From contig CAKOQK010000005.1 of assembly GCA_934101225.1 (NCBI GenBank), positions 27,323 to 59,322 of the forward strand: a stretch of 32,000 bases of DNA, given 5' to 3'. Below the pieces are notes generated by a model. It did no database searches. It saw only the letters and a list, made by a program, of their open reading frames with translations, and was not told where the DNA came from. Source of the stretch: an uncultured Bacilli bacterium (GTDB lineage: Bacteria; Bacillota_I; Bacilli_A; RF39; UBA660). A program made the translations under genes and the position numbers. This document shows, piece after piece, positions 3,865-28,425 of the stretch; position 1 is the stretch's first letter; the number at the start of each line of letters is the position of its first letter.

Positions 3865-3887
3865 ATATCCTACTTGGAGAAATTAAT

Positions 3888-8650: not shown

Positions 8651-10831
8651 ATGTTTTGGAGTAATTTATTTAAAAAGAAAAATAAAATATTTAATACAGA
8701 AATAGTTAATAATACATCTTCTAAAATACCTTCATTTGAAGAATTAACTACTAAAGAACAAGAATATGTTAGTAACTTAAAAGAAGAATATCTAAAATTT
8801 TATGAAAATGAAGATAATTATATTAACTTAGATAATGAACTATTTAATGAAATAAAAATGTATCAAGATTTAGCCCTAGATATTATGCATAAAGATCATT
8901 TAGGTAATATCGTTAACTCAATAATAGACAGTAAAAAACTAGCATATTATTCTCAAAAAATAACTGAAATAAATAACACTTTAAAATATAAATATATTGC
9001 CTTAAACGAATTAAGAAAAGATAAAAAATATTTAACTAAACATATGGGACTATATGTTTTAGGAAGAAGAAAAATAAACATATTAAAAGCTTTAGATCAT
9101 CAAATGAATATTATAAACAATATGTTTGTTATCGCCGACCAAAAAATAATTGATTACTGTACCTGTGCAATCGCAAACTATCCAAAAAATATAAACAAAA
9201 ATACAAAATATGTATTAGAAAACAGTTATAATAAAGTAGAGAAAGATTATAAAAAATTATTTAATTCATCAATTAATTTAGATGATAATCTAACAGCAAC
9301 CGACAAAGCAACGTATATAGAAATTATAATAGATAAGTTTATATATGAAAATAAAGATTTAATAGATAAATTAAAAGAACAACTAGATCAAATTGCAAAT
9401 AGTGAAATTAAAGATAAAACGATGCAGCAAGAAATAATAGATAATTTAATGAAAATCAAAATGTACTATAATATATTTAATAAATATAGTCGAAATAAAT
9501 TAACTCAAGAAGATTTCGAAGATCTATATCAAATAATATTTAATGTATATACGTATTTCCCATTTAATAATGGGTTTAAAAATTATTGCGAAATTGAAGC
9601 AAATAAACAAGAATTAAAACTATATAACAACTTCTTAAAATTAAAATTAGAAATGTTTTTCTTAAAAAAGTCAAAAATATTCGAAACAAATATTATAAAC
9701 GATAAAATATATGATCATCTTTTGGAAATCTTTAATTCGAATCAAGTAGATGACTGGCAAAAAACAGGCTTACCTAAAGATAATCTTATAAGTGATTCAT
9801 TTGATATTATAGAATTTGAAAATTTAGATTTACTTTTAACGTTAGATTACCCAAATGGATTTGATTTATATTTTAATGAACCACTTATGTTTGAATGGGA
9901 CAATCTTAATATTTATATTGACAAATATACCATTAGAAAAGAATTTTATAAATACATTTTAGGATCAGATACTTGCATAGAAGATAACATATCATGTGAT
10001 AGCAAAAAATTAAATAAAATAAATAATGATTGCAAATTATTTAGCTTACTGTATAAAGATAAAATAAATTTCAATATCCTACCATTTTTGTTAGAATCTT
10101 GCAGTATAGATAAGCTTGATTGGTACATTTACAAGAGTTGTGATATAAATAAAGATCGTCATATGCAATATCATCAATTATATCTACCAGATAAAACGAA
10201 AAAACTTTATATAGATTATTCAAAAATTAATGTTGGTTTAACAAAAATTTATCTTAATAATGGTTTAAATGAATTAATATTAGAATTGCCTCCATATGAC
10301 TCAAAATATAAAGTTGAAGATACGCAAATTATATTGTCAAAAGATTTAGATCCGTTAAATATTAAGATTAGTATGTCTAACGTATATAATGATTATTATC
10401 TTTATCAACTATATTATGTAATTTTTGAAATTTGTGAAGCTATAGTATTACCTTCAATAATATTCTTTTCCAATAATAATGAGCACAATAATAAAATAAT
10501 TTTTAATTATTTGTATCATTTACTTTATGAATTTTTTATGGTTATAAAAGAATTTAAAACAGGTGAAAATTCTGATTATTATACTATTTTTAGTGAAATG
10601 TTAAATAAACTAGCAACACCATATGAAAAAAATGACCATTTGCCTAGTATTGGCGATCATACATTATTAAATAATCCAGCATTAAACAACCAGAAAAATT
10701 TAAAATACGAAAATAATAATGATATTGAAGAAGCGTATAAACAAGCTATTAAAGATTATATAGAAAAAATTAATAGTGATAAAGATTATTTTAATTTTAA
10801 ATCAGATGAAGAATTTATTAAATTAAAATAG
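8651..10831 (+). CDS. large hypothetical protein, paralog 3 (726 aa)
   Basis: Long ORF whose 5' ~540 nt and ~33 nt of leader are apparently identical to paralog 2. The rest is divergent. Confidence 0.85.
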   Translation: MFWSNLFKKKNKIFNTEIVNNTSSKIPSFEELTTKEQEYVSNLKEEYLKFYENEDNYINLDNELFNEIKMYQDLALDIMHKDHLGNIVNSIIDSKKLAYYSQKITEINNTLKYKYIALNELRKDKKYLTKHMGLYVLGRRKINILKALDHQMNIINNMFVIADQKIIDYCTCAIANYPKNINKNTKYVLENSYNKVEKDYKKLFNSSINLDDNLTATDKATYIEIIIDKFIYENKDLIDKLKEQLDQIANSEIKDKTMQQEIIDNLMKIKMYYNIFNKYSRNKLTQEDFEDLYQIIFNVYTYFPFNNGFKNYCEIEANKQELKLYNNFLKLKLEMFFLKKSKIFETNIINDKIYDHLLEIFNSNQVDDWQKTGLPKDNLISDSFDIIEFENLDLLLTLDYPNGFDLYFNEPLMFEWDNLNIYIDKYTIRKEFYKYILGSDTCIEDNISCDSKKLNKINNDCKLFSLLYKDKINFNILPFLLESCSIDKLDWYIYKSCDINKDRHMQYHQLYLPDKTKKLYIDYSKINVGLTKIYLNNGLNELILELPPYDSKYKVEDTQIILSKDLDPLNIKISMSNVYNDYYLYQLYYVIFEICEAIVLPSIIFFSNNNEHNNKIIFNYLYHLLYEFFMVIKEFKTGENSDYYTIFSEMLNKLATPYEKNDHLPSIGDHTLLNNPALNNQKNLKYENNNDIEEAYKQAIKDYIEKINSDKDYFNFKSDEEFIKLK

Positions 10832-11081: not shown

Positions 11082-14000
11082 GTGGCGTACAAAAAAGCTA
11101 AATTTGGCGATCATGCCGAGAGAATTACATTCTCAAAAACATCTAATAATTACGAATTGGCAGATTTATTAGATATTCAAAAGAAATCATTTGATTGGTT
11201 TCTAACAGAAGGAATAAAAGAGGTATTTGAAGATTTATTCCCAGTAGAAAGTTTCACCGGAAATATTTCCCTAGAATTTGGAGATTATTCCTTTGATGAA
11301 CCTAGATACTCAATTAAAGAGTGCAAAGAAAGAATGCTTACATTCGCAGCACCTTTAAAAGTAGAAGCAAGAGTTTTCATTAATGAAACAGGTGAAGTAA
11401 AAGAACAAGAGGTTTTCTTAGGTGACATGCCTATGATGACTGAAGCTGGAACATTCATTATTAATGGTGTAGAAAGAGTTATTCAATCACAATTAGTAAG
11501 AAGTCCATCTATTTACTTTAAACGTGAAATTGATAAAAACGGTCGTCCAGTAGTTTCTGGAGAAGTTATTCCAAATAAAGGAACATGGCTAGAATTCGAG
11601 TTAGATGCAAGAGATGTTATCTACGTAAGAATTGATCGTACTAGAAAAGTTACAATCACAACACTTTTAAGAGCACTTGGATTATCAAGTGATGAAGCAA
11701 TCAAAGAAGTATTTGGTGAAGATAATTACTTTATCAATAATACATTAGAAAAAGATAGTACTAAAAATACTGATGAGGCTTTAATTGAAATTTATGAAAA
11801 ATTAAAACCAGGTGAACCAGCTACCCTTGATAGTGCTAAGAATCAATTAGTAGTAAGATTCTTCGATAAATTTAGATATGACCTAGCAAAAGTAGGACGT
11901 TATAAATTTAATCGTAAATTAAATGTACTAGACAGACTATTAGGTTGTACACTTGCTGAAAACTTAAAAAATGGTAAAGAAATAATCGCTAAAGAAGGCG
12001 AAGTAATTGATAAAAAACGTTTAGAAGAATTAAGACCATACTTTGCTGATGGATTAAACGTTAAAGAAGTTACAATAAATGAAGATTTAGATACATATAA
12101 CAAGATTCAAGAAGTTGTTGTATATGATAAGAAAGATCCTACTAAGAAAGTTAATATTATTGGAAATGATCAAACTATTGCTGAAAGAAGATTAACTATT
12201 TCTGATGTGTATGCAGCAGTAAGTTATTATTTAAATTTACTTGCAAATATTGGTAATATTGACGAAATAGATAACTTAGGAAATCGTCGCGTAAGACAAG
12301 TTGGAGAATTAGTTCAAACTCAATTTAAAGTTGGTATGGCTCGTATGGAAAGAGTTATTCGTGAAAGAATGACTACTCAGGAATTAGATACAGTTACACC
12401 AAAAACATTAATAAATATTAGACCAGTAACAGCTGCACTTAAAGAATTCTTTGGTTCATCTCAGTTATCAAAATTCATGGATCAAATTAACCCAATTGCT
12501 GAGTTAACAGATAAGAGACGTCTATCTTCTTTAGGACCAGGTGGTTTATCAAGAGACCGTGCTGGAATGGATGTACGTGACGTTAACGAATCACACTATG
12601 GCCGTATTTGTCCAATAGAATCACCAGAAGGTGCAAACATCGGACTTATTACATCACTAGCAAGTTATGCAAAAATTAATGAATATGGGTTTATTACAAC
12701 TCCATATCGTAAAGTAGAAAATAAACATATTTTAGATGAAGTAGTTTATTTAACAGCTGATGAAGAAGCAGATTATTACATAAGTCAATCAACAATCAAT
12801 ATTGATGAAAATAATAATATTGTTGATGAACAAGTAGTTGCCAGACTTAATGGTGAATCAGTTATGGTTAAATCAGATTTAGTTAACTATATTGATGTAT
12901 CACCATCACAAATCGTTTCAATTACAACAAGTTGTATTCCATTCTTAGATCACGATGATGCAAGACGTGCCCTAATGGGTTCAAACATGCAAAGACAAGC
13001 AGTACCTGTATTAAGACCAGAATCACCAATAGTTGGAACTGGTGTTGAATATGTTGCTGCTAGAGATTCAGGATCAACAATCGTTGCTAAAGCCGACGGT
13101 GTAGTAGAATACGCTGATGGTAAAAAAATTGTTATTAAAAACGCTAAAGGAAAAGATGAATATTATTTAGCATCATTCGAAAGAAGTAATGCTGAAAGTA
13201 ATATTTCTCATAACCCAATTGTTAAAAAGGGTGAAAAAGTTCATCGTGGTGAAGTTATCGCTGATGGACCAGCTACTCAAAATGGAGAACTTGCACTAGG
13301 TAGAAACATGGTAGTAGCGTTCATGACATGCAATGGTTATAACTATGAAGATGCCGTTGTATTAAATGAAAAATTAGTTAAAGATGATGTTTATACAACA
13401 TTACATATTGAACATTATGATACAGACTGTCGTGATACAAAATTAGGACCTGAAGAAATTACAAGAGATATTCCAAACGTTGGAGAAGATGCTCGTAAGA
13501 ATTTAGATGCTAATGGTATCGTAAAAATTGGTACTGAAGTACATGAAGGCGATATCCTAGTTGGTAAAGTTACTCCAAAAGGAATGCAAGAATTAACTAG
13601 TGAAGAAAAATTATTACATGCAATCTTTGGTGAAAAAACTAGAGAAGTAAGAGATACTTCACTTAGAGTTGCTCACGGTGCTGACGGAATTGTTCATGAC
13701 GTAAAAGTTTATACAAAAGAAAATTCCGATGAATTAGCTCCTGGAGTTTCAAAAATCGTTCGTGTTTATATAATTCAAAAACGTAAGATTCAAGTCGGAG
13801 ATAAAATGTCAGGACGTCACGGTAATAAAGGTGTTATTTCCCTAATTTTACCAGAAGAAGATATGCCATACTTACCAGATGGTACTCCAGTTGATATTGT
13901 TCTTAACCCACAAGGTGTTCCATCTCGTATGAACTTAGGACAAATCTTAGAGTTACACTTAGGAATGGCTGGTAAAAAATTAGGCGTTAAATATGCAACT

Positions 14001-14759
14001 CCAGTATTCGATGGTGCAACAGTTGATGAAATTAAAGAAGAAATGGCTAAAGCTGGTATGGACTTAGATGGTAAAACAGATCTATATAATGGACGTACTG
14101 GTGAAAAATTCGAAAACCGTGTTGCTGTAGGTGTTATGTACATGATCAAATTACATCACATGGTAGATGATAAAATTCATGCTCGTTCAACTGGGCCTTA
14201 CAGTTTAGTAACACAACAACCATTAGGTGGTAAAGCACAATTTGGTGGTCAAAGATTCGGAGAAATGGAAGTTTGGGCATTATATGCGTATGGTGCTGCT
14301 CATGTATTGCAAGAAATCATGACAATTAAATCAGATGATGTAGTTGGACGTGTTAAAGTATATGAAGCCTTAGTTAAAGGACAAACTCCAAAAGGTGCTG
14401 GAATGCCTGAATCATTCAGAGTATTAATTAAAGAATTCCAAGCATTAGGACTTAATGTTGAAATGATCGACCAAGATGGTGTTGCTCATGAATTAAAAGA
14501 ATTAGAAGCCGAAGAAGATGCTGCATCAGATGCAATTACTATTGATGAAATAGATGCAAAAACTGGTGATATAGTCCATAAAAAAGATGCACCACTTCCT
14601 GAAAACTTTAGAAGACCTGAAGTAAATGCAGATTTAAATGATAATCTAGAAGATGATTATTCAGATGATGATGAAGAAGATGAAGATTTCGATGACGAAG
14701 AACCTGATTTTGAAGAATTAGAAGACATCGAAAACGGAAATCTAGAAGTGGAGGAATAA
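11082..14759 (+). CDS. rpoB: DNA-directed RNA polymerase subunit beta
   Basis: Unmistakable conserved blocks: [61 protein letters not shown] start 8 nt after GGGGTGA. Acidic C-terminal extension. Confidence 0.97.
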
Positions 14760-14761
14760 AA

Positions 14762-17700
14762 ATGTTGGAAGTTAATAATATTAAAGGTATTCGTATTAGT
14801 ATTGCTAGCCCTGAAAAGATAAGAAGTTGGTCATTTGGTGAAGTTAAAAAACCAGAGACAATTAATTATCGTACATTAAAACCAGAAAGAGATGGATTAT
14901 TCTGTGAAAAAATCTTTGGACCTACAAAAGATTTTGAATGTTCATGTGGTAAATATAAAAGATTAAGATATAAAAACGTAGTTTGTGATAGATGTGGTGT
15001 AGAAGTTACTCGTTCTAAAGTACGTCGTGAACGTATGGGACACATAGAGCTTGCTGCACCTTGCTCTCACATCTGGTTCTTCAAAGGTGTTCCATCAAAA
15101 ATGGGATTAGTACTAGATATGTCTCCAAGAGAACTTGAAGAAGTATTATATTTCGTATCATACGTAGTAATTAATCCGGGAACAGCTCCACTAGAGAAAA
15201 AACAAACCCTATCAGATAAAGAATATCGTGCATATTATGAAAAATATGGTAATTCATTTGAAGTAGGTATGGGTGCTGAAGCAATCCAAAAATTATTAAA
15301 AGAAGTAGACGTCGATAAAGAAATTGAAAAATTACGTGCTGAATTAGATGGAGCAACTGGTCAAAAACGTATCCGTTTAGTTAAGAGATTAGACTGTTTA
15401 GTAGCGTTCCAAACATCAGGAAATAAACCTGAATGGATGGTATTAGACGTAATTCCTGTAATTCCACCGGATTTAAGACCAATGATTCAATTAGATGGTG
15501 GTAGATTTGCAACATCTGACTTAAACGATTTATATCGTCGTATCATTAATCGTAACAATCGTTTAAAGAAATTGTTAGAGCTTGGTGCTCCATCAATAAT
15601 TGTTCAAAATGAAAAACGTATGTTACAAGAAGCAGTAGATACATTATTTGATAACGGTAGACGTGGAAGAAGTGTAAGCGGTGCAGGTAATCGTGCATTA
15701 AAATCATTATCTTCTATGTTAAAAGGTAAACAAGGACGTTTCCGTCAAAACTTATTAGGTAAACGTGTTGATTACTCTGGTCGTTCAGTTATCGTAGTAG
15801 GACCAAATTTAAAAATGTATGAATGTGGTCTTCCAAAAGATATGGCTTTAGAACTATTTAAACCACATGTAATTAATGGTTTAGTAGAAAGAGGCCTAGC
15901 TCACAACATTAAAGGGGCAAAAAAATTAATAGATAATAAAGATGACTGTGTATGGGATGTAGTTGAAGATGTAATTACTGAACATCCAGTTATGCTTAAC
16001 CGTGCCCCAACATTACATAGACTTGGTATTCAAGCATTCGAACCAAAATTAGTTGGTGGTAAAGCTATTAGATTACACCCACTAGTATGTGCTGCATTTA
16101 ATGCCGATTTCGACGGCGACCAAATGGCAGTTCACGTACCAATTAGTGAAGAAGCTAAAGCAGAAGCAAGAATCTTAATGTTAGGTGCTAATAACATCTT
16201 AAAACCATCAGATGGTAAACCAATCGTTACTCCATCACAAGATATGGTATTAGGAAATTATTACATCACATTAGAATATGCTGGAGAACCAAACGAAGGT
16301 AAAGTTTATAAAAATTCAAATGAAGCATTAATGGCTTATGAAAGAAGAGAAATAACTTTACATACAAGAATCGCTCTTCCAGTTAAATCATTTAAATATA
16401 AAATATTTGCAGATGATGTTAAAGATAAATATTTAGTTACAACAGCTGGTAAATTATTATTTAACGAAATATTACCAGATACTTATCCATTTATTAATGA
16501 ACCAACTAAAGACAATATTGAAGGGTTAACACCAAACAAGTATTTCTTAGAAATGGGAACTAATATTCCTGAAGCAATTAAAGCTATGCCTTTAACACCA
16601 GCGTTTGCTAAAAAGACATTACAACAAATAATTGCTCAAATATTTAAACGTTATAAAACAACAGAAACATCTATGATGCTAGATAGATTAAAAGATTTAG
16701 GATTTAAATATTCTACAATTTCAGGTATCACATTCAGTATTATGGATATTATGACTAGTCAACATAAACAAGAATATATTGCTGCTGGTCAAGAAAAGGT
16801 TAATAAAATAAATAAACAATTCCAAAGAGGTTTAATTACTGATTTAGAAAGACATAATTCAGTATGTGCTGTATGGAATGAAGTAAGAAGTCAAGTAGAA
16901 GCAGAGTTAAAAGATATTGCTGCCACAAACCCAACAAATCCAATATTTATCATGATGTCATCTGGTGCTCGTGGTTCATTAAACCAATTTACCCAAATGG
17001 CAGGTATGCGTGGATTAATGGCTAAACCAAACGGTGATGCAGTAGAAATTCCAATTTTAACATCACTTTATGAAGGACACTCAGTTAACGAATTCTTCGT
17101 TAATACTCACGGTGCTCGTAAAGGATCTGCCGACACAGCTCTTAAGACAGCCGATTCAGGTTACTTAACAAGAAGACTTGTAGATGTTGGTCAAGATATA
17201 ATTATTAAAGAAGAAGATTGTGGTTGTACATCAGGCTTAATAGTATCAGACTTTATTAACGACAGTGATGGCTCAGTTATTGAATCAATGGCTGAAAGAA
17301 TCGTTGGTAGATATGCTGCTAAAAAGGTTATCAATCCCGAAACTAAAGAAGTTATTGTTGATAAAGGTGAAGCAATTACAGAAAGTATTGCAAGCAAGAT
17401 TGTTAAAGCAGGTATTACAAAAGTTGAAATCAGAAGCGTATTAACTTGTAAGAGTGAACACGGAATTTGTCAAAAATGTTATGGTTACAACCTAGCAACT
17501 GGTAACTTAGTTGAAACAGGTGAAGCTGTAGGTATTATGGCTGCTCAATCAATCGGTGAACCAGGTACACAGTTAACACTTCGTACATTCCATGCCGGTG
17601 GTGTAGCTTCAGAAGAAGATATCACTCAAGGTTTACCAAGAGTTGAAGAAGTATTCGAAGCACGTCGTCCAAAAGGAAAAGCAACAATTGCTGAAATTAC

Positions 17701-18484
17701 TGGTAAAGTTTCTAAAATAGAAGAATCTTCTGGGAAATGGAAAGTAACTGTTATGAACGATAATGAAGCTAGAGAACATACAACAAGTTATGGTGCTAAA
17801 CTAAGAGTAGAAGTAGGATCAGAAGTTAATGCTGGTGATAGATTAACTGAAGGTATTATTGCACCTAAAGAATTACTTGCAGTTACTGATCCAATTACAA
17901 CTCAAGAATATATCTTAAAAGAAATTCAAAAGGTATATAAATCACAAGGTGTTGATATTGCTGATAAACACGTTGAAGTTATTGCATCAAGAATGATTAA
18001 TAAGATTAGAATAACTGATGCTGGTGATACTGACATGGTAGCAGGTTTAACAGTTAGTATTAGAGAATTTGCTAAAAAGAATAAACCAATTATTCTTGAA
18101 GGTAAAGTTCCTGCTAAAGGTTATCCAATTATTTTAGGTATTACAAAATCAAGTTTAGAAACTGATTCATTCTTATCAGCTGCATCATTCCAAGAAACAA
18201 CAAGAGTATTAACAGATGCTGCTATTAAAGGAAAAGTTGATGAATTAAGAGGCTTAAAAGAAAATGTTATTTTAGGTAAATTAATTCCCGCTGGTACTGG
18301 TGCCAGACAATATGCTGATGTAGATATAACATTAGAAAAAGAGTTTTTATCAGATGAACCAAGTGAGGTATTAGAAGAAGAATTCTTAGATAATGAAGAA
18401 CAACCAAATATCGAAGTTAATGAAGTAGAAGAAAACGCTTCAGAAAATAACGAAGAAACTACTGAAACTAGCGATAATCAATAA
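14762..18484 (+). CDS. rpoC: DNA-directed RNA polymerase subunit beta'
   Basis: Zn-finger CxCGK...CxxCGVEV, catalytic [12 protein letters not shown], and the trigger-loop/bridge-helix blocks. The ATG lies 2 nt after the rpoB stop, with GGAGGA inside the rpoB 3' end. Confidence 0.97.
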
Positions 18485-18566: not shown

Positions 18567-18595
18567 TTGACATTTTTAAGCAAAAATGGTAGTAT
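18567..18595 (+). promoter_or_regulatory. promoter of the AAA+/VWA array (TTGACA - 17 - TGgTAGTAT)
   Basis: Consensus -35 at 18567-18572, 17-nt spacer, extended TG, -10 TAGTAT at 18590-18595. Its position argues against the tracked ATG at 18586 as the start codon. Confidence 0.5.
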
Positions 18596-18618: not shown

Positions 18619-20505
18619 ATGAATAAGAATAGTTTTGAATTAACTTTACTTAGTGAAGGACAAATATGGGGTAATGATAAAGAAAGACAATTAGATGTAA
18701 TAAGAAAGTACGGAATAAAAGCTGCAATTACTGATTTATGTATTTTAACAGGTGGTTATTTGTGTGAAGATACTATAGATGAAGATAGATCTTTAACTGG
18801 TAGAACTAGTTGCTTCTGGACTAGATCTGATGATGGCGATAATGATGTCCGCGAGGTCGATGTGGATGGTGATAGGGTCGACGTATACAGGTATAAACGC
18901 TATGGTGCTGTTCGCCCAGCCTTGCAATCTTCTGTAATCTTTTCCCAAATCTCCCCGAACAAAGTGAGTGGATACAATGGAACGGAAGAGGTTGAATTCG
19001 GAAAATATCCTCAAAATGCTGCTGATTCAAGAATGCAAAATATACTAGAGTCAGAGTATAATAGAGGAATGAGTAAAACTGGAAGAAGTTACACATTTGA
19101 TTCTGTAACAGATTATGACTGTGATACAGGATTTAAACCTGTAACCTATGAAGAATACGAATATCAAGGAAAAGCATATATTCGTATAAAAGCAAACTTT
19201 TATTGTGCTGGTTATAAATTCATGCTTTCAAATGGTGTCGAATATAAAAATGGTGATTATGTTTGGGTAGAAGTGTCTCCTGTAAAATGGTTAATAGATG
19301 ACGAAAACAACCAATTAATTTCAAAAAAAGGATTAGTTTCTGGTATAAGATTTCTTGATAAAAGAACTAATTATAAAGGTGATTTTGATAGAACAGAAAT
19401 GAAAGAATATCTTGATAAATATATGGTTAAAGATTTATTTCAATCAGTAGATTTTGAATATTTACAAGATATGGAATATTCAATAGATAAAAGTGAAAAT
19501 ATCAAAAAAACTAATCCATATAATTTAAGTTTTAATAAAGTAAGTGAAGAAGATATAATAAAAGGAGCAATAGAAAGTGGAGTTGCAGTATTTTTACATG
19601 GTCCATCATCTGAAGGTAAATCAGCAAGAGTTAAACAAATAGATCCCTCTTGTGAAATAATATATTTGAGAAATGCTGCTCCAGATAGTTTAAATGGTAA
19701 AAGTGTTTATAATTCAGAAACAGGTGAAATGATAGATGTTCCACCAACTTGGCTAAAAAAATTACAAGCTAAGTGTTCAGAAGAACCAAATAGACTTCAT
19801 ATATTATTCTTTGATGAAATAACAAATGCCTTACCAAGTATTCAAGGTATAGCGTTTAATATAGTTTTAGATCGAGAGGTAAATGGTATTTGGAAATTAC
19901 CAGATAATGCTAGAATAGTAGCTGCAGGAAATGATATGAAAGATTCTCTAGCAGCAAACCAATTAGCAGAACCATTATTTAATAGATTCGCTCACGTATA
20001 CATAAAAACAACTACTGAAAGTTGGTTAAAATGGGCGAGTGAACATAATATTCATCCAGCCATATATTCATATATAGCTTATAAAAATGGCGAAACACTT
20101 CGAAGTAAGTATGATGGAGAAAAACCTAATGCTGATCCAAGAAAATGGGAAATGGCTTCTAAAATGCTTTATGCAACAGGAAGTCCAGAAATGTTAAGGG
20201 CATTAGTAGGTGAAGATATAACAAGAGAATTTATTGAGTTTTGTAAACAAGAAGTAATAACATTGGAAGATGTTATAAATAAAAATTATACTGATAAAGA
20301 TATTGAATCATTAAATACCGCCCAAAGATATGCAACTACAATGGGATTATCACAAGTAGAAGAATCAAATTTAGAAATAGTTAGAAACTTTACATCAAAG
20401 TTAGGCTCCGAATTTAAAGCTATATTCGATGCTTTATGGACACATAGCGATGAATCAAGAATAGAAATAATCGCTGAATTAAATATAAATAAAAAAAGAA
20501 GGTGA
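18619..20505 (+). CDS. fusion protein A1: variable N-terminal DUF6273-like domain + MoxR/AAA_5-type AAA+ ATPase (628 aa from the ATG at 18619)
   Basis: RBS AAAGAGGGG lies 7 nt before the ATG at 18619. Walker A GPSSEGKS; Walker B ILFFDEITNA (DEINRA-like); sensor-1 IVAAGND; PLFNRF Arg-finger region. N-domain motifs TKAAITDLCILTG, FWTRSDD, AVRPAL, VEFGKYPQ, VKWLIDD. Confidence 0.85.
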   Translation: MNKNSFELTLLSEGQIWGNDKERQLDVIRKYGIKAAITDLCILTGGYLCEDTIDEDRSLTGRTSCFWTRSDDGDNDVREVDVDGDRVDVYRYKRYGAVRPALQSSVIFSQISPNKVSGYNGTEEVEFGKYPQNAADSRMQNILESEYNRGMSKTGRSYTFDSVTDYDCDTGFKPVTYEEYEYQGKAYIRIKANFYCAGYKFMLSNGVEYKNGDYVWVEVSPVKWLIDDENNQLISKKGLVSGIRFLDKRTNYKGDFDRTEMKEYLDKYMVKDLFQSVDFEYLQDMEYSIDKSENIKKTNPYNLSFNKVSEEDIIKGAIESGVAVFLHGPSSEGKSARVKQIDPSCEIIYLRNAAPDSLNGKSVYNSETGEMIDVPPTWLKKLQAKCSEEPNRLHILFFDEITNALPSIQGIAFNIVLDREVNGIWKLPDNARIVAAGNDMKDSLAANQLAEPLFNRFAHVYIKTTTESWLKWASEHNIHPAIYSYIAYKNGETLRSKYDGEKPNADPRKWEMASKMLYATGSPEMLRALVGEDITREFIEFCKQEVITLEDVINKNYTDKDIESLNTAQRYATTMGLSQVEESNLEIVRNFTSKLGSEFKAIFDALWTHSDESRIEIIAELNINKKRR

Positions 20506-20511: not shown

Positions 20512-22410
20512 ATGATGGATTATGAATTAACTTTACTTAGTGAAGGACAAATATGGGGAAATGACAAAGAAAATCAATTAGAAGTTCTAAAAAAATATGG
20601 AACAAAAGCTGCAATTACAGATTTATGTATTTTAACTGGTAGTTGTTTACGTAAAGATACTATAGATGAAGATAGATCTTTGGCTGGTAGAACTAGTTGG
20701 TTTTGGACTAGATCTGATGATGATGATAATGATGTCCGCGCGGTCAATAAGGATGGTAATGGGGACATCGGTTTTAGGTATGGACGCTATGCTGCTGTTC
20801 GCCCAGCTTTGCAATCTTCTGTAATCTTTTCTCAAATCTCCCCGAACAAAGTGAGTGGATACAATGGAACGGAAGAGGTTGAATTCGGAAAATATCCTCA
20901 AAATGCTGCTGATTCAAGAATGCAAAATATACTAGAGTCAGAATATAAAAGAGGAATGAGTAAAACTGGAAGAAGTTACACATTTGATTCTGTAAAATAT
21001 AATGACTATGATACAGGATTTAAACCTGTAACTTATGAAGAATACGAATATCAAGGAAAGGAATATATTCGTATAAAAGCAAACTCTTATTGTTATAATG
21101 GCGATAAATTCATGCTTTCAAATGGCGCCTGTTATAAAGATGGTGATTATGTTTGGGTAGAAGTATCACCGGTTAAATGGTTGATAGATGATAAAGCAGG
21201 AATTTTAATTTCAAAAAAAGGATTAGTTTCTGGTATAAGATTTCTTGATAGTAAAACTGATTATGAAGGTGATTTTAATAGAACAGAAATGAAGGAATAT
21301 CTTGATAAATATATGGTTAAAGATTTATTTCAATCAGTAGATTTTGAATATTTACAAGATATGGAATATTCAATAGATAAAAGTGAAAATATCAAAAAAA
21401 CTAATCCATATAATTTAAGTTTTAATAAAGTAAGTGAAGAAGATATAATAAAAGGAGCAATAGAAAGTGGAGTCGCTGTATTTTTACATGGTCCATCATC
21501 TGAAGGAAAATCAGCAAGAGTTAAAGAAATAGATCCAACTTGTGAAATTATATATTTAAGAAATGCTACTCCAGATAGTTTAAATGGTAAAAGTGTTTAT
21601 AATTCAGAAACAGGTGAAATGATAGATGTTCCACCAACTTGGCTTAAAAAATTACAAGCTAAATGTGACCAAGAGCCAAATAGACTTCATATATTATTTT
21701 TTGATGAAATAACAAATGCCTTACCAAGTATTCAAGGAATTGCGTTTAATATAGTTTTAGATCGAGAAGTAAATGGTATTTGGAAATTACCAGATAATGC
21801 CAGAATAGTAGCTGCAGGAAATGATATGAAAGATTCTCTAGCAGCTAATCAACTAGCAGAACCATTATTTAATAGATTTGCTCATGTATATATCAAAACA
21901 ACTACTGAAAGTTGGTTAAAATGGGCAAGCGAAAATAACATCCATCCAGCAATATATTCATACATTGCTTATAAAAATGGTGAAACACTTCGAAGTAAGT
22001 ATGATGGAGAAAAACCTAATGCTGATCCAAGAAAATGGGAAATGGCTTCTAAAATGCTTTATGCAACTGGAAGTCCAGAAATGTTAAGGGCATTAGTAGG
22101 TGAAGATATAACAAGAGAATTTATTGAATTTTGTAAACAAGAGGTAATAACATTAGAAGATGTAATAAATGAAAATTATACTGATAAAGATATTGAATCA
22201 TTAAATACAGCCCAAAGATATGCAACAACTATGGGATTATCGCAAGTAGATGAAGCCAATTTAGAAATAGTTAGAAACTTTACATTAAAGTTAGGCTCCG
22301 AATTTAAAGCTTTATTCGATGCCATATGGACACACGGTGATGAATCAAGATTAGAAATAATCGCCGAGTCAAAACTTATTGAAAAATCGTTAGGAGGTAA
22401 AAAGCTATAA
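20512..22410 (+). CDS. fusion protein A2: variable N-domain + MoxR/AAA_5-type AAA+ ATPase (632 aa)
   Basis: Same architecture as A1, with a near-identical ATPase half and a distinct C-terminal tail (AESKLIEKSLGGKKL). AAGGTGA RBS. Confidence 0.88.
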   Translation: MMDYELTLLSEGQIWGNDKENQLEVLKKYGTKAAITDLCILTGSCLRKDTIDEDRSLAGRTSWFWTRSDDDDNDVRAVNKDGNGDIGFRYGRYAAVRPALQSSVIFSQISPNKVSGYNGTEEVEFGKYPQNAADSRMQNILESEYKRGMSKTGRSYTFDSVKYNDYDTGFKPVTYEEYEYQGKEYIRIKANSYCYNGDKFMLSNGACYKDGDYVWVEVSPVKWLIDDKAGILISKKGLVSGIRFLDSKTDYEGDFNRTEMKEYLDKYMVKDLFQSVDFEYLQDMEYSIDKSENIKKTNPYNLSFNKVSEEDIIKGAIESGVAVFLHGPSSEGKSARVKEIDPTCEIIYLRNATPDSLNGKSVYNSETGEMIDVPPTWLKKLQAKCDQEPNRLHILFFDEITNALPSIQGIAFNIVLDREVNGIWKLPDNARIVAAGNDMKDSLAANQLAEPLFNRFAHVYIKTTTESWLKWASENNIHPAIYSYIAYKNGETLRSKYDGEKPNADPRKWEMASKMLYATGSPEMLRALVGEDITREFIEFCKQEVITLEDVINENYTDKDIESLNTAQRYATTMGLSQVDEANLEIVRNFTLKLGSEFKALFDAIWTHGDESRLEIIAESKLIEKSLGGKKL

Positions 22411-22802
22411 TGAAAAATAAAAAAGAAATTTTCTTATCTTATATTAAAGCAAATGTTGTACCAATATTAGTTGATTTTATGTCTGGTAAAGATCTGCCTG
22501 ATGCTACTATATTGTCATCTAATATAGATGTAAAAGAATTAAACGGTCATTATGAGGGAAAAAATTTTGTTCCGCCCAAATGGCTTAATGAAATACTTAA
22601 TTCAAATACCAGTAAAATACTAGTGATTGATAAAATAGATATAATTTCTAAAGAAGAACAAATGAAATTTGTTGAAATATTAAAATATCGAAAAGTATCT
22701 ACCTTTGAATTCCCAAAAAACTGTATAATAATTGTTACTGCAAATGAAATTAACAAAGATAAAATAAATGAAGAAATACTTTCATTAGTAGCACAAATTT
22801 AG
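22410..22802 (+). CDS. B1: 130-aa minimal AAA-core paralog with degenerate Walker A and Walker B (predicted inactive)
   Basis: Aligns by eye to the ATPase core of the A proteins. VPPKWLNEIL matches VPPTWLKKLQ; ILVIDKID matches ILFFDEIT; IIIVTANE matches RIVAAGND. The P-loop position reads FMSGKD. TAATG stop/start overlap with A2. Confidence 0.75.
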   Translation: MKNKKEIFLSYIKANVVPILVDFMSGKDLPDATILSSNIDVKELNGHYEGKNFVPPKWLNEILNSNTSKILVIDKIDIISKEEQMKFVEILKYRKVSTFEFPKNCIIIVTANEINKDKINEEILSLVAQI

Positions 22803-22811: not shown

Positions 22812-24206
22812 ATGAAATATGATATAGAATCATTAAAAAGAAAAATGCTTGTAAAATATCCATTTTTTGGAAGTGTTGTGGCAGGAGTAGAATATATAGA
22901 AGATAATGAAATATCAACTGCAGCAACTGATGGAGAAAAAATATACTATAACCCTAATTTTTTAAATAATATATCAAAAGAAGAACAAACTTTTGTATTT
23001 GCTCACGAAGTGTGCCATATTGCTTTTAATCATATTTTAAGAAGCGAAGGAAAAGATGAGGACATTTGGAATATTGCAACCGATGCTGTCATAAATCAGT
23101 TTCTAAAAAAAGATGGATTACCACTTGCTAAAGGTGGAGTAGATATAGAAGAAGCAATAAATTATAATGCTGAAGATTTATACAAATTATTATTGAAAAA
23201 CCAAAATCAAAATGGACAAAGTAATAATCAAAACACAGGTAATTCAAACAATCATCAAAAAAATAACGAACATAAAAATTCAAACGAATCGAGTTCTAAT
23301 GAACAACAAGAAACAGAAAGTAATCAAACAAGTAACAATAGCAATCATGAAAATGAAGAAAAAAATAATGTTAGTCATAATACTCATAATTTGTGGAAAG
23401 ATGCTGTAAAAAAGCATAAAAAGCAACAGGAAAAATCTAACGAAAATAATAATCAAAATCAAGAAAAAGATAACAATCAAATTGAAAAGAAACAAAAAGA
23501 ACTTGAAAATTTGGGTGAAAAAAATGCATTCAAGAAAAATAGAGATGTCAAGAAAAAACAATTAGAAGAGTTGAAAGAAGCTATTTCAAAACAAGCTTCA
23601 AAAGCAGGTAACTCAACGAATAGTGATATTAGAACAGTTAACGATATAGGTTATGCTAAGCCTTTAATTGATTGGAGATACATTTTGAAAGAAGCTATAA
23701 AATATGATGTTGATTGGTCTTATAAAAATGCTACCATTGAAAATGGAGTTGTTAGTGCAAACCTAGAAGAACAACCTTTCCCTGAAACAGAAATTGTTTT
23801 GGATACAAGTGGATCAATAAATGAAGTGCTTTTAAGAAATTTTTTAAGAGAATGCAAAAATATTTTAAAATATTCAAAACTAAAAGTTGGCTGTTTTGAT
23901 ACTAAGTTTTATGGTTTTACTGAAATAAGAACTGAAGATGATTTAGAGAATATGAAATTTTTAGGCGGCGGTGGCACTAGTTTTAATGCTGCTGTAAATG
24001 CATTCTCAAGACGTGTTGAAAATAAAATAGTGTTTACCGATGGAGAAGCATCAATGCCTAAAATGACACTTGATGCAGTTTGGATCGTGTTTGGCAATAA
24101 AAAAATAAATCCTAAAGGTGGAAAAGTAATAAATATTACTCAAGAACAATTAGATAGATTATATTCTTTTGAAACAAAAAATGCGTACAAAAGAAAAACT
24201 AGATAA
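22812..24206 (+). CDS. C1: DUF2201-type protein, putative HExxH metallopeptidase N-domain + low-complexity linker + VWA domain
   Basis: YPFFGSV...TAATDGEKIYYNP...FAHEVCHIAFNHILR...WNIATDAVIN is the DUF2201_N pattern. C-terminal VLDTSGS (DxSxS MIDAS), GGGGTSF and FTDGEA are VWA motifs. The N/Q/S/E/K-rich linker covers about residues 128-260. Confidence 0.85.
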   Translation: MKYDIESLKRKMLVKYPFFGSVVAGVEYIEDNEISTAATDGEKIYYNPNFLNNISKEEQTFVFAHEVCHIAFNHILRSEGKDEDIWNIATDAVINQFLKKDGLPLAKGGVDIEEAINYNAEDLYKLLLKNQNQNGQSNNQNTGNSNNHQKNNEHKNSNESSSNEQQETESNQTSNNSNHENEEKNNVSHNTHNLWKDAVKKHKKQQEKSNENNNQNQEKDNNQIEKKQKELENLGEKNAFKKNRDVKKKQLEELKEAISKQASKAGNSTNSDIRTVNDIGYAKPLIDWRYILKEAIKYDVDWSYKNATIENGVVSANLEEQPFPETEIVLDTSGSINEVLLRNFLRECKNILKYSKLKVGCFDTKFYGFTEIRTEDDLENMKFLGGGGTSFNAAVNAFSRRVENKIVFTDGEASMPKMTLDAVWIVFGNKKINPKGGKVINITQEQLDRLYSFETKNAYKRKTR

Positions 24207-24246: not shown

Positions 24247-26151
24247 ATGATAAATTATGAATTAACTTTACTTAGTGAAGGACAAATATGGGGAAATGAT
24301 AAAGAAAATCAATTAAAAGTTCTAAAAAAATATGGAACAAAAGCTGCAATTACAGATTTATGTATTTTAACAGGTCGTTATTTGTGTGAAAATACTATAG
24401 ATGAAGATAGAACTTTAACTGGTAGAACTGGTTGGTTTTGGACTAGATCTGATGATGGCGATAATGATGTCCGCGCGGTCAATAAGTATGGTAATAGGGC
24501 CAACATAATAAAGAATGCACGCTATGGCACCGTCCGCCCAGCCTTGATATCATCTAGTGTATTCTCACAAATCTCCTCGAACAGAGTGAGTGGATACAAT
24601 GGAACGGAAGAGGTTGAATTCGGAGAATATCCTCAAAATGCTACTGATTCAAGAATGCAAAATATACTAGAAAAAGAATATAATAGAGGAATGAATAAAA
24701 CGGGAAGAAGTTACACATTTGATTCTGCAAAATATGATGACAGTAATACAGGATTTAAACATGTAACCTATGAAGAATACGAATATCAAGGGAAGAAATA
24801 TATTCGTGTAAAAGCAAACTTTTATTGTTTTGGTGGCGGTAAATTCATGCTTTCAAATGGTGTCGAATATAAAAATGGTGATTATGTTTGGACAGAAGTA
24901 TCACCAGTTAAATGGCTAATAGATGATGAAAACAAGCAATTAATTTCCAAATATGGATTAGTTTCAGGTATAAGATTTCTTGATAAATATAATGAATATA
25001 ATGGAGATTTTAATAAAACTGAAATGTATGAATATCTTAATAAATATATGGTTAAAGATTTATTTCAGTCACTTAATCTTGAATATTTACAAGATATGGA
25101 ATATTCAATAGATAAAAGTGAAAATATCAAAAAAACTAATCCATATAATTTAAGTTTTAATAAAGTAAGTGAAGAAGATATAATAAAAGGAGCAATAGAA
25201 AGTGGAGTTGCAGTATTTTTACATGGTCCATCATCTGAAGGTAAATCAGCAAGAGTTAAACAAATAGATCCCTCTTGTGAAATAATATATTTGAGAAATG
25301 CTGCTCCAGATAGTTTAAATGGTAAAAGTGTTTATAATTCAGAAACAGGTGAAATGATAGATGTTCCACCAACTTGGCTAAAAAAATTACAAGCTAAGTG
25401 TTCAGAAGAGCCAAACAGACTTCATATATTGTTCTTTGATGAAATAACAAACGCGTTACCAAGTATTCAAGGAATTGCTTTTAATATTGTACTAGATCGA
25501 GAAGTAAATGGAATATGGAAATTACCTGATAATGCTAGAATAGTAGCTGCTGGAAACGATATGAAAGATTCCCTAGCAGCTAATCAATTAGCAGAGCCCT
25601 TATTTAATAGATTCGCTCATGTATATATCAAAACAACTACTGAAAGTTGGTTAAAATGGGCAAGTGAAAATAACATCCATCCTGCCATTTATTCATATAT
25701 AGCTTATAAAAATGGTGAAACACTCCGAAGTAAGTATGATGGTGAGAAACCTAATGCTGATCCAAGAAAATGGGAAATGGCTTCTAAAATGCTTTATGCA
25801 ACTGGAAGTCCAGAAATGTTAAGAGCATTAGTAGGTGAAGATATAACAAGAGAATTTATTGAGTTTTGTAAACAAGAAGTAATAACATTAGAAGATGTTA
25901 TTACTAGCAATTATTCTGATAAAGATATTAAATCATTAAATACAGCCCAAAGATATGCAACAACGATGGGATTATCACAAGTAGATGAAGCAAATTTAGA
26001 AATAGTTAGAAACTTTACATTAAAGTTAGGCTCCGAATTTAAAGCTATATTTGATGCTTTATGGACACATGGCGATGAATCGAGAATAGAAATAATCGCT
26101 GAATTAAATATAAATAAAAAAAAGAAGGTGAAAATAAATGATGGATTATGA
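24247..26151 (+). CDS. fusion protein A3: variable N-domain + MoxR/AAA_5-type AAA+ ATPase (634 aa)
   Basis: First gene of module 2. The AELNINKKKKVKINDGL tail overlaps the A4 start by 14 nt. Confidence 0.88.
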   Translation: MINYELTLLSEGQIWGNDKENQLKVLKKYGTKAAITDLCILTGRYLCENTIDEDRTLTGRTGWFWTRSDDGDNDVRAVNKYGNRANIIKNARYGTVRPALISSSVFSQISSNRVSGYNGTEEVEFGEYPQNATDSRMQNILEKEYNRGMNKTGRSYTFDSAKYDDSNTGFKHVTYEEYEYQGKKYIRVKANFYCFGGGKFMLSNGVEYKNGDYVWTEVSPVKWLIDDENKQLISKYGLVSGIRFLDKYNEYNGDFNKTEMYEYLNKYMVKDLFQSLNLEYLQDMEYSIDKSENIKKTNPYNLSFNKVSEEDIIKGAIESGVAVFLHGPSSEGKSARVKQIDPSCEIIYLRNAAPDSLNGKSVYNSETGEMIDVPPTWLKKLQAKCSEEPNRLHILFFDEITNALPSIQGIAFNIVLDREVNGIWKLPDNARIVAAGNDMKDSLAANQLAEPLFNRFAHVYIKTTTESWLKWASENNIHPAIYSYIAYKNGETLRSKYDGEKPNADPRKWEMASKMLYATGSPEMLRALVGEDITREFIEFCKQEVITLEDVITSNYSDKDIKSLNTAQRYATTMGLSQVDEANLEIVRNFTLKLGSEFKAIFDALWTHGDESRIEIIAELNINKKKKVKINDGL

Positions 26152-28033
26152 ATTGACTTTACTTAGCGAAGGACAAATATGGGGAAATAATAGTGAATCT
26201 CAATTAGAAGTAATTAGCAAATATGGAACAAAAGCTGCAATTACAGATTTATGTATTTTAACTGGCAGTTGTTTATATAAAGATACTATAGATGAAGATA
26301 GATCTTTAACTGGTAGAACTAGTTGGTTTTGGACTAAATCTGATGATGATGATAATGATGTCTGCGTGGTCAATAAGTATGGTAATGGGACCAGCCTATG
26401 TAGGTATGAACGCAATGTTGCTGTTCGCCCCGTGTTGCAATCTTCTGTAATCTTTTCTCAAATCTCCCCGAACAAAGTGAGTGGATACAATGGAACAGAA
26501 GAGGTTGAATTCGGAGAATATCCTCAAAATGCTGCTGATTCAAGAATGCAAAATATATTAGAGTCAGAGTATAATAGAGGAATGAGTAAAACTGGAAGAA
26601 GTTACACATTTGATTCTGTAAAATATTATGACTATGATATAGGATTTAAACCTGCAACCTATGAAGAATACGAATATCAAGGAAAGGAATATATTCGTAT
26701 AAAAGCTAACTTTGATTTTATTGGCAATAAATTCATGCTTTCAAATGGCGCCTGTTATAGAAATGGTGATTATGTTTGGGTAGAAGTATCACCGGTTAAA
26801 TGGTTGATAGATGATAAAGCAGGAATTTTAATTTCAAAAAAAGGATTAGTTTCTGGTATAAGATTTCTTGATAGTAAAACTGATTATGAAGGTGATTTTA
26901 ATAGAACAGAAATGAAGGAATATCTTGATAAATATATGGTTAAAGATTTATTTCAATCAGTAGATTTTGAATATTTACAAGATATGGAATATTCAATAGA
27001 TAAAAGTGAAAATATCAAAAAAACTAATCCATATAATTTAAGTTTTAATAAAGTAAGTGAAGAAGATATAATAAAAGGAGCAATAGAAAGTGGAGTCGCT
27101 GTATTTTTACATGGTCCATCATCTGAAGGTAAATCAGCAAGAGTTAAACAAATAGATCCAACTTGTGAAATAATATATTTAAGAAATGCTACTCCAGATA
27201 GTTTGAATGGTAAAAGTGTTTATAATTCAGAAACAGGTGAAATGATAGATGTTCCACCAACTTGGCTAAAAAAATTACAAGCTAAATGTGACCAAGAGCC
27301 AAATAGACTTCATATATTATTTTTTGATGAAATAACAAATGCCTTACCAAGTATTCAAGGTATAGCGTTTAATATCGTACTAGATCGAGAAGTAAATGGA
27401 ATATGGAAATTACCTGATAATGCAAGAATAGTAGCCGCTGGAAATGATATGAAAGATTCCCTAGCAGCTAATCAATTAGCAGAGCCCTTATTTAATAGAT
27501 TCGCTCATGTATATATCAAAACAACTACTGAAAGTTGGTTAAAATGGGCAAGTGAAAATAACATCCATCCTGCCATTTATTCATATATAGCTTATAAAAA
27601 TGGTGAAACACTCCGAAGTAAGTATGATGGTGAGAAACCTAATGCTGATCCAAGAAAATGGGAAATGGCTTCTAAAATGCTTTATGCAACTGGAAGTCCA
27701 GAAATGTTAAGAGCATTAGTAGGTGAAGATATAACAAGAGAATTTATTGAATTTTGTAAACAAGAAGTAATAACATTAGAAGATGTAATAAATGAAAATT
27801 ATACAGATAAAGATGTTGAATCATTAAATACAGCCCAAAGATATGCAACAACTATGGGATTATCACAAGTAGATGAAGCCAATTTAGAAATAGTTAGAAA
27901 CTTTACATTAAAGTTAGGCTCCGAATATAAAGCTATATTCGATGCTTTATGGATACATGGCGATGAAAGTAAGTTAGAAAGACTTGCAGAAGCAAAACTT
28001 GCTGAAATACCTAGAGGAGGTATAAGAAGATAA
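26138..28033 (+). CDS. fusion protein A4: variable N-domain + MoxR/AAA_5-type AAA+ ATPase (631 aa)
   Basis: Second gene of module 2, with an A2-like tail (AEAKLAEIPRGGIRR). Confidence 0.88.
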   Translation: MMDYELTLLSEGQIWGNNSESQLEVISKYGTKAAITDLCILTGSCLYKDTIDEDRSLTGRTSWFWTKSDDDDNDVCVVNKYGNGTSLCRYERNVAVRPVLQSSVIFSQISPNKVSGYNGTEEVEFGEYPQNAADSRMQNILESEYNRGMSKTGRSYTFDSVKYYDYDIGFKPATYEEYEYQGKEYIRIKANFDFIGNKFMLSNGACYRNGDYVWVEVSPVKWLIDDKAGILISKKGLVSGIRFLDSKTDYEGDFNRTEMKEYLDKYMVKDLFQSVDFEYLQDMEYSIDKSENIKKTNPYNLSFNKVSEEDIIKGAIESGVAVFLHGPSSEGKSARVKQIDPTCEIIYLRNATPDSLNGKSVYNSETGEMIDVPPTWLKKLQAKCDQEPNRLHILFFDEITNALPSIQGIAFNIVLDREVNGIWKLPDNARIVAAGNDMKDSLAANQLAEPLFNRFAHVYIKTTTESWLKWASENNIHPAIYSYIAYKNGETLRSKYDGEKPNADPRKWEMASKMLYATGSPEMLRALVGEDITREFIEFCKQEVITLEDVINENYTDKDVESLNTAQRYATTMGLSQVDEANLEIVRNFTLKLGSEYKAIFDALWIHGDESKLERLAEAKLAEIPRGGIRR

Positions 28034-28425
28034 TGAAAAACAAGAAAGAAATATTATTATCATATATTAAAGCGAATGTTGCACCAATATTAGTTGATTT
28101 TATGTCTGGTAAAGATCTGCCGGATGCTACTATATTGTCATCTAATATAGATGCAAAAGAATTAAACGGTCATTATGAGGGAGAAAATTTTGTTCCGCCC
28201 AAATGGCTTAATGAAATACTTAATTCAAATACCTGTAAAATACTAGTGATTGATAAAATAGAAACAATTTCTAAAGAAGAACAAATGAAATTTATCGAAA
28301 TATTAAAATATCGAAAAGTATCTACCTTTGAATTACCAAACAACTGTATAATTATTGTTACTGCAAATGAAATTAGTAAAGATAAAATAAATGAAGAAAT
28401 ATTTTCATTAGTTGTACGAATTTGA
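28033..28425 (+). CDS. B2: 130-aa degenerate AAA-core paralog
   Basis: About 90 percent identical to B1, with the same TAATG overlap with the preceding gene. Confidence 0.75.
   Translation: MKNKKEILLSYIKANVAPILVDFMSGKDLPDATILSSNIDAKELNGHYEGENFVPPKWLNEILNSNTCKILVIDKIETISKEEQMKFIEILKYRKVSTFELPNNCIIIVTANEISKDKINEEIFSLVVRI

Follow-up and report, generated by a model that had tools for sequence, protein, structure and literature searches.

What could make about 25 residues differ almost completely between neighbouring gene copies that are otherwise closely similar? The question is raised by a 32,000-nucleotide stretch of AT-rich chromosomal DNA (27.8% G+C) from an uncultured Bacilli bacterium (assembly GCA_934101225.1, contig CAKOQK010000005.1, positions 27,323 to 59,322). 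This whole stretch is here called the window, and positions refer to it unless a related locus is named. Downstream of rpoC the window carries an array of at least six tandem copies of a gene that we call A (five full, the sixth cut at the window end), whose products are 88–90% identical overall in pairwise comparison. The first copy, A1 (18619–20505, plus strand), is the first gene after rpoC, and encodes a putative N-terminal variable binding module of about 290 residues followed by a putative AAA+ ATPase. In each of the five full paralogs, a G+C-rich patch of about 25 hypervariable residues (patch 1) is found in this module. Our answer, to which we assign a probability of roughly 85%, is that patch 1 is the variable repeat (VR) of a target of a diversity-generating retroelement (DGR), located in an N-terminal binding module fused to an AAA+ ATPase, and that in the lineage with the array the DGR-written VRs are now mostly held and shuffled by gene conversion.

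Composition and variability of patch 1

In A1, patch 1 comprises 25 codons at positions 18832–18906; a first, sequence-only reading of this DNA had placed it 2 nucleotides off, at 18834–18908. The equivalent patches of A2 to A5 start at about 20719, 24454, 26345 and 30137, as located from sequence anchors. Apart from this small shift, the five patch versions, their equivalent positions, the G+C-rich string in A1 and a second variable segment (patch 2; 19195–19230 in the A1 alignments) are all present as that reading had quoted them. The 79-nucleotide cores of patch 1 have a G+C content of 48–56%, against 30–31% for the A genes (56% against 31% in A1), and an A content of 18–29%, against 39–40%.

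Across 120 database homologs, patch 1 is the entropy maximum of the protein, with patch 2 as the second peak. Among the five paralogs, the first, second and third positions vary in 60%, 44% and 28% of the patch 1 codons, respectively, compared with 6%, 3% and 26% of the codons in the ATPase part. The dN/dS ratio among the paralogs, proposed as a check on diversifying selection, is indeed above 1 in both, at about 1.5 for patch 1 and 3.3 for patch 2, and amounts to about 0.4 in the rest of the N-terminal module and 0.07 in the ATPase part. The residue sets at variable positions are largely reachable from AAY codons, as exemplified by residue 79 (N/D/S/H/F/G/A/Y/I) and residue 81 (D/H/Y/N/F/C/S/T/G/R), and it was these AAY-type spectra that made us suspect a DGR.

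Retroelement cassettes in related loci

An ortholog with 79% identity (P0079) is encoded directly downstream of an RVT_1 gene, and 1.35 kb before its VR there is an A-rich, non-coding copy of patch 1. When 185,579 representative genomes were scanned for the pattern, this template repeat (TR) was found in nine metagenome-assembled genomes (MAGs) of uncultured gut Bacilli, labelled Tenericutes, Bacillales, Mycoplasma and, in one record, Muribaculaceae; VRs were found in four others. A scan of metagenomes yielded TR loci on 13 contigs, all of them different from the window type. Wherever the stretch fetched includes the target, a single VR is present, 1.35–1.6 kb downstream of the TR.

An intact cassette is found at locus L020, with an avd-like open reading frame (ORF), a 79-nucleotide TR, a reverse transcriptase (RT) gene, an A gene, a gene for a 130-residue protein and a DUF2201 gene. 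The L020 RT contains the motifs LGNQSSQ and YMDD (RVT_1, E=2.3e-15), and RTs of this type have thousands of DGR-like homologs. The ORF upstream of the TR (214 residues) resembles Pfam bAvd (E=1.1e-4, 23 bits, below the 40-bit cut-off). Cognate TRs and VRs differ at 10 of 27 adenine sites and at none of the 52 other sites in L020, at 11 of 27 and none of 52 in L021, at 13 adenine sites and no others in L026, and at 14 and none in L027. The latter two loci come from different samples; outside the VR, their TR, RT and A sequences are identical over about 2,140 nucleotides, whereas 44 nucleotides of the VR hold 16 differences. Among the RT-adjacent lineages, 106 protein pairs with at least 97% identity outside the VR differ at five or more VR residues; in two of these pairs, the proteins agree completely (100%) outside the VR and have 8 and 10 differing residues in it. 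The DGR is active in these RT-adjacent relatives.

The lineage of P0079 represents a third state: its RT gene is in fragments, and 30 cluster representatives share a single VR allele. In this broken-RT lineage (L002) the TR variant GTCCGTGCGGTCTCTTAAAATGG looked degenerate. The same variant is found at L037 and L043 (TR at about 7041 and 1427, respectively), together with a VR (at about 8409 and 2786, TR strand) that carries the same TCTCTT; the variant therefore appears to have been used as a template in some strains.

Some further features of these loci were observed. A hairpin, GCGCC-TTYG-GGCGC, lies just 5' of the TR in L020 (6190–6165, minus strand), and also in L008, L009, L011, L021, L026 and L028; in L021 and L028 it reads GCACC-TTTG-GGTGC, in which both arms have changed and can still pair, suggesting that an RNA stem is conserved ahead of the TR. 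For the TR region, RNA folding reaches a z-score of only -2.0, and a comparison of the region with Rfam returned no family. The targets of L026 (1437–2597) and L027 (1428–2324) have the same RT upstream, and that of L026 keeps the N-terminal module with an unrelated C-terminus in place of the ATPase, which is either a different fusion or a chimeric contig.

Window VRs compared with the family TR

For comparison with the window, the family TR was borrowed from the relatives, and this heterologous template offers 26 adenine and 53 other sites per VR. In A1, the 79-nucleotide segment homologous to the TR lies at 18847–18925, with hypervariable codons reaching 5' to 18832; the VRs of the other full copies are at 20734–20812 (A2), 24469–24547 (A3), 26360–26438 (A4) and 30152–30230 (A5). 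Taken together, the five VRs mismatch the family TR at 53 of 130 adenine sites (41%) and at 24 of 265 other sites (9%; p=4.5e-13), and the replaced adenines have become G in 25, T in 18 and C in 10 cases. The bias is seen individually in A1 (12/26 adenine sites against 3/53 others, p=4.5e-5), A2 (12/26 against 1/53, p=2e-6), A4 (10/26 against 4/53, p=0.0014) and A5 (10/26 against 6/53, p=0.007). Outside the VR, the rest of the A gene shows no adenine bias (128/737 against 167/1040). Columns that vary among the window paralogs are likewise concentrated at adenine sites (19/26 against 16/53 others, p=3.5e-4), and more so when A3, which has changed at its VR 3' end too, is left out (19/26 against 8/53, p=6e-7). 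The G+C richness of patch 1 is explained by this process, because the TR scaffold has 44% G+C and is one third A, and many of its adenines have been overwritten, mostly by G, T or C.

Two sites that are non-A in every sampled TR vary among three or four bases in the window lineage only. They are the C within GCGCGG and the first G of codon 94; at this codon, every TR reads GGT and every RT-adjacent protein has G, compared with NNT in the window lineage. Since these two sites vary, the TR of this lineage must itself have differed. We infer that the window lineage once had its own TR variant, with a scaffold that may be pictured as GTCCGCG[A]GGTCAATAAGAATGGTAATAGGAACAACAAATATAGGTATAAACGCAATAATGCT-like, with A at both lineage-only variable sites.

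Mosaic copies and stable alleles

In the five paralogs, 112 parsimony-informative sites fall into ten mutually incompatible partitions and are arranged in blocks, such as A2=A4 at alignment positions 600–840, A1=A3 at 840–1080 and A3=A4 at 1321–1560. The patchwork of shared variants described from the sequence is real, with all four blocks as quoted: DVDGD in A1 and A5, KAGILISKK...DSKTDYEGDFN in A2 and A4, ENKQLISKYG in A3 and A5, and QIDPSC/AAPDS/CSEEP in A1 and A3. Such sharing is far from chance. Chimeric VR alleles also exist, P0003 combining A4-like ends with an A2-like middle, and two genes at L044 have identical VRs. The proposal of recombination or gene conversion between copies is borne out by these block-wise incompatible sites, the chimeric alleles and the identical VRs.

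The VRs of the window lineage appear static. None of its 49 protein pairs with at least 97% identity outside the VR has five or more VR differences, and in 95–96% of these pairs the VRs are identical. Ten cluster representatives, with identity elsewhere as low as 91%, carry the A1-type VR. The first 1,000 nucleotides of A1, VR included, are identical to those of a copy from a Nepalese sample, and rpoC differs by 1.7% and the 3' half of the gene by about 7%. Ongoing diversification, recognizable as VRs that differ between otherwise identical genomes, was thus seen in the RT-adjacent lineages and not in the window lineage.

The components of a DGR were searched for in this lineage as well. Neither in the window nor in seven related loci did tblastn and TR scanning identify an RT, avd or TR, and a scan of both strands of the window for the 70 invariant VR positions matched only the five VRs. 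Nor were RT, avd or TR found in two complete clusters, L030 and L045, in which the whole cluster lies on one contig, bounded by rpoC and by a gene for a 730-residue protein plus a tRNA synthetase gene. L030 has four A genes, and L045 has two together with an insertion sequence (IS). The IS-like insertion (L045 6787–7838) contains two minus-strand ORFs and is located between rpoC and a 5'-truncated A gene; one of its ORFs ends with ...HWEGDTIVG, by our own reading a transposase-like motif. The RT clusters P0128 and P0125, which were looked up, belong to other lineages.

Patch 2

The patch 2 equivalents lie about 378 nucleotides downstream of each anchor, at about 21082, 24817, 26708 and 30500, with indels between the copies. 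Here dN is 0.36 and dS 0.11. As a candidate second VR, patch 2 was compared with six cassette loci by short-word BLAST, which gave only self matches. This candidate was rejected also because, where a DGR is active, near-identical proteins with differing VRs have the same patch 2. Nor are the changes in patch 2 restricted to adenines of the ancestral sequence, and its diversity in the array lineage is much greater than in other lineages. Patch 2 looks like a neighbouring loop, changed by ordinary mutation, indels and positive selection rather than from a template, and may adjoin the VR hairpin. Diversifying selection on two loops, as the sequence-only reading had it, fits patch 2 better, for which no template was found and which is not hypermutated where the DGR is active; as the main cause of patch 1 it is not supported.

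Origin of the window VRs

In its basic form, the cassette of the family consists of an avd-like gene, a 79-nucleotide TR, a DGR-type RT gene, the A gene, the gene for the 130-residue protein and the gene for the DUF2201 metallopeptidase/VWA protein. According to the established DGR mechanism, TR RNA would be copied by the RT with misincorporation opposite adenines, and the resulting cDNA would replace the VR, so that about 17 codons for a beta-hairpin on the surface of the N-terminal module are rewritten. The A protein would serve a small conflict or surveillance system as its sensor and motor, with the metallopeptidase/VWA protein as partner. In the window lineage, the A gene has multiplied into a tandem array directly downstream of rpoC, each copy with a different DGR-written VR; the DGR may have written the diversity before the gene multiplied, or multiplication may have come first. 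At present, gene conversion would keep and reshuffle the copies while fresh mutagenesis is slight or absent, and the DGR itself would be lost, or else remote and rarely acting.

A more specific version holds that RT and TR were lost after the array had diversified, so that on-demand hypermutation was replaced by a hard-wired repertoire, recombined purely by gene conversion among at least six paralogs. We offer this tentatively, at somewhat less than even odds. If true, diversity of a 'somatic' kind would have given way to a 'germline' kind in a unicellular gut bacterium with a small genome, within a previously undescribed DGR-coupled AAA+/VWA-metallopeptidase surveillance system.

It is possible, though in our judgement unlikely, that an intact DGR elsewhere in the genome still rewrites all of the at least six VRs in trans, which would make the array a multi-target DGR locus, as in Treponema denticola or as with the remote targets of Legionella. 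Tandem multi-target loci and remote targets are documented for DGRs (Wu et al. 2018, PMC5758913), and most window VRs keep the G+C-rich 3' element GTTCGCCCAG common to the TR. Codon 94, NNT-diversified only in this lineage, also speaks for a lineage-specific TR at some time, and MAG contigs break in the array, leaving much of the genome unseen. However, identical VR alleles occur in strains from different people and countries, despite a divergence of 1.7% in rpoC and up to 9% in the proteins elsewhere, whereas proteins of RT-adjacent lineages that are identical outside the VR carry different VRs. Moreover, the closest representative genome (the MAG of L023) gave only VR copies and no TR in the scan of the whole collection, none of the 120 closest RT homologs could be matched to a contig carrying window-lineage A genes, and the 3' elements of A3 and A4 are mutated.

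The sequence-only reading had invoked recombination or gene conversion between copies plus diversifying selection on two loops. Taken as a model in which both patches arose by ordinary point mutation under such selection and were spread by gene conversion, with no retroelement involved, it agrees with the dN/dS values above 1 in both patches, with the clear signs of gene conversion, with the absence of RT and TR from the window, and with a patch 2 that has indels and no template. For patch 1 it is nevertheless refuted by the TR/VR pairs of the relatives, in which orthologs located beside an avd-like gene, TR and RT are demonstrably DGR targets with the same VR boundaries. In the window itself, the variation is found at codon positions 1 and 2 and at TR-adenine sites, differences from the family TR being 4.5 times commoner at adenines (p=4.5e-13) with the rest of the gene unbiased, and the residue spectra are largely AAY-derived. 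We therefore consider an origin of both patches in mutation and selection very improbable. That array and mosaic are an assembly artefact, made of collapsed or chimeric metagenome contigs of a strain mixture, is scarcely credible, since, although the sequence comes from a MAG and contigs often end in the array, the independent assembly L001 (22 kb) reproduces A2 to A6 with identical VRs, several other samples show two to four or more copies bounded by rpoC and the 730-residue protein and tRNA synthetase genes, and the ORFs are intact.

Several points weigh against a DGR origin of the window VRs with subsequent maintenance by gene conversion. The cognate TR and RT of the window genome were not found, the family TR is borrowed from relatives, and a TR variant proper to the window lineage is itself deduced rather than seen. 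The 9% of non-adenine sites in the window VRs that differ from the family TR are to be added to this, as is the VR of A3, in which the adenine bias is not significant when taken alone (9/26 against 10/53). The MAGs are incomplete and their contigs usually break inside the array, so that a remote DGR could be missed; the assemblies represent a consensus, in which minority VR variants could be hidden. With respect to the protein, the ATPase assignment comes from motifs and sub-threshold Pfam matches, and a C-type lectin fold of the N-terminal module is tentative.

Architecture of the A proteins

No Pfam or NCBIfam match was obtained for the A proteins at normal thresholds, and sequence and profile searches against the PDB gave nothing relevant. 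The C-terminal half contains a Walker A motif (GPSSEGKS) and a Walker B motif (ILFFDEIT), and the best Pfam matches of the ATPase part are to AAA_5 (E=0.014), Sigma54_activat (E=0.018) and AAA (E=0.11), all below cut-offs. Structure prediction of the full-length protein with 52 close homologs was unusable (pLDDT 38). For the N-terminal module, prediction with AlphaFold2 (AF2) and 41 diverse homologs reached a pLDDT of 96. In this model, the VR forms a beta-hairpin (strands 75–78 and 84–87) with which a small alpha/beta subdomain ends, before a beta-rich one begins. The earlier suggestion that patch 1 is a specificity-determining surface element is accordingly plausible, as the VR of a DGR target that is modelled as a hairpin.

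The N-terminal module is widespread, with 1,679 clusters at 50% identity, and occurs alone, in tandem, or before other domains; no homolog was found in phage genomes. A Foldseek search with the model gave no significant match in PDB or BFVD, the top BFVD match being a DUF6273 protein (E=0.055). Pfam DUF6273 (PF19789) was found below its cut-off (E>=8.6e-4) in three of the 41 module homologs, all of them distant, and the window A protein has no match to PF19789 even at E<=10. The sub-threshold matches place the VR-bearing end of DUF6273 (positions 120–168 of 172) on residues 45–100, approximately, of two homologs. In another module homolog, P0312, it is residues 219–277, in the C-terminal region, that weakly match the N-terminal part of DUF6273 (positions 2–63, E=0.018). 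This is a very weak hint that DUF6273 and the module may be related by circular permutation. From its sequence and the predicted structure, the module would work like a DGR scaffold of the C-type lectin (CLec) type, although membership is unproven.

Partner genes and organization of the window

Two kinds of genes accompany the A genes. The plus-strand gene at 22812–24206 encodes a protein with a DUF2201_N putative metallopeptidase domain (PF13203, E=1.4e-34) and a VWA-like DUF2201 domain (PF09967, E=1.3e-13), both above curated cut-offs, together with a low-complexity linker rich in N, Q, E and K; this gene is syntenic in all lineages. A second copy (28436–29889) is split into ORFs at 28436–29248 and 29482–29889, called as separate genes of 270 residues (DUF2201_N) and 126 residues (DUF2201), and is likely to be a pseudogene, the first copy being intact.

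The gene for the 130-residue protein, with copies at 22410–22802 and 28033–28425, follows an A gene in all lineages. Its product resembles the segment from Walker B to sensor-1 of an AAA+ core, without a Walker A motif, and matches Pfam AAA weakly (E=0.012, residues 60–124) and residues 373–439 of A2 in BLASTP (E=0.011). From these similarities, it may be a degenerate AAA+ subunit. A VMAP-type third component was not seen, as this AAA-like fragment is the only third gene and no other neighbour is conserved. PADLOC returned no defence model for A, the 130-residue protein, the DUF2201 protein or avd.

The order of genes after rpoC, all on the plus strand, is A1, A2 (20512–22410), the first 130-residue protein gene, the intact DUF2201_N/DUF2201 gene, A3 (24247–26151; the most diverged copy), A4 (26138–28033), the second 130-residue protein gene, the broken DUF2201 gene, A5 (29930–31834) and the start of A6 (31824–32000), recognized by its translation. 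A longer version of A6, with its own VR DDGDNNVHLVDEYGLLGSYRRGARCCAVRPVL, is found in L001 (11895–13004). The longest ORF of A1 starts at 18586, and the database start, MNKNSF, is at 18619, as in P0030 (628 residues). A promoter-like site at 18567–18595, upstream of A1, supports the later start; apart from this site, a scan of the window for promoters and terminators was uninformative.

The remainder of the window consists of small ORFs (84–3434), three tandem paralogous genes, rpoB (11082–14759) and rpoC (14762–18484). The three paralogs (3855–6095, 6187–8427 and 8651–10831) encode proteins of 726–746 residues that have no match in Pfam, NCBIfam or PADLOC, with a well conserved N-terminal part of about 330 residues and a highly divergent C-terminal part of about 400 residues. 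Members of the same family are located directly after the A array in relatives (L030 17761–19956 and L029 3082–5274), so that rpoBC and the A array appear to be bracketed by a second variable gene family.

Comparison with known systems

The A family exists in three natural states, i.e. an active single copy with RT, a broken RT with one VR allele across strains, and a tandem array without RT. These offer a natural comparison of what such sensors recognize, and of the fate of a hypermutation target once its mutator is gone. From this family it can also be seen that large genes may have their VR at the 5' end, and that, in a genome rich in AT, a local stretch with much G+C and little A can point to a DGR target when there is no RT close by.

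With the canonical DGRs, such as those of Mtd of Bordetella phage BPP-1, TvpA of Treponema denticola and LdtA of Legionella (PMC5758913), the family shares a TR, an avd-like gene, an RT with the motif [LIV]GxxxSQ, VR differences from the TR only at adenines, an AAY-rich TR, and a G+C-rich 3' element of the VR common to the TR. Unlike in those systems, the VR of the A protein is near the N-terminus (codons 71–95, approximately, of about 630) and the homology is short (79 nucleotides); N-terminal VRs were reported for only a handful of DGRs in the survey (PMC5758913). Tail fibres or surface lipoproteins are the targets there, whereas the A protein, a fusion to a putative AAA+ ATPase, looks cytoplasmic, and the window lineage is without RT and TR in cis, its VRs looking static.

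Closer in composition are the MoxR-vWA ('VMAP ternary') conflict systems of cyanobacteria and gammaproteobacteria, with DGR-diversified sensors (Kaur et al. 2020, PMC7159879; Dore et al. 2024, PMC10907252). There, a binding domain made variable by a DGR is linked genetically to a MoxR-like AAA+ ATPase and to a vWA protein with a peptidase, with a proposed role in the sensing of invaders, a combination that the A family, with its putative ATPase, resembles. Their variable C-type lectin (FGS) domain is C-terminal and usually part of the vWA protein, next to a separate MoxR gene and a VMAP protein, whereas in the A family an N-terminal variable module is joined directly to the ATPase, and the partners are the DUF2201_N metallopeptidase/DUF2201 VWA protein and the 130-residue AAA-like fragment, with no VMAP seen. 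The hosts are gut Bacilli with small genomes (some records being labelled Tenericutes or Mycoplasma), not known multicellular bacteria. DGR-diversified MoxR/vWA sensors have been proposed as anticipatory immunity and have so far been tied to multicellular cyanobacteria and proteobacteria; the A family, with its module-ATPase fusion, 130-residue protein and metallopeptidase/VWA protein, would be a compact version in common human-gut Bacilli.

In gut phages, DUF6273 domains, which are C-type-lectin-like, serve as DGR targets at the N-terminus (PMC10743442). The tentaclins and other DUF6273 targets described there resemble the A module in having an N-terminal VR-bearing globular domain, in which the VR is a surface beta-hairpin flanked by other loops. 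The tentaclins are phage receptor-binding proteins followed by Ig-like domains, whereas the A module is without a phage homolog, has only sub-threshold Pfam matches, and contains an extra beta-rich part (residues 115–250, approximately).

In the searchable literature we found no description of the architecture as a whole, namely an ATPase-fused variable module with DUF2201 and 130-residue partners and an RT-less array.

For the array as such, a different kind of system offers a parallel. Neisseria pilE/pilS and Borrelia vlsE are gene-conversion repertoires for surface variation, in which related copies exchange short blocks and thereby give rise to mosaic alleles of a specificity segment, as is also the case for the A genes. 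In contrast to those systems, the A copies are all full-length genes that, from their sequences, look expressed, they lie in one array with no single expression site, and the diversity underlying their mosaics was written by a retroelement.

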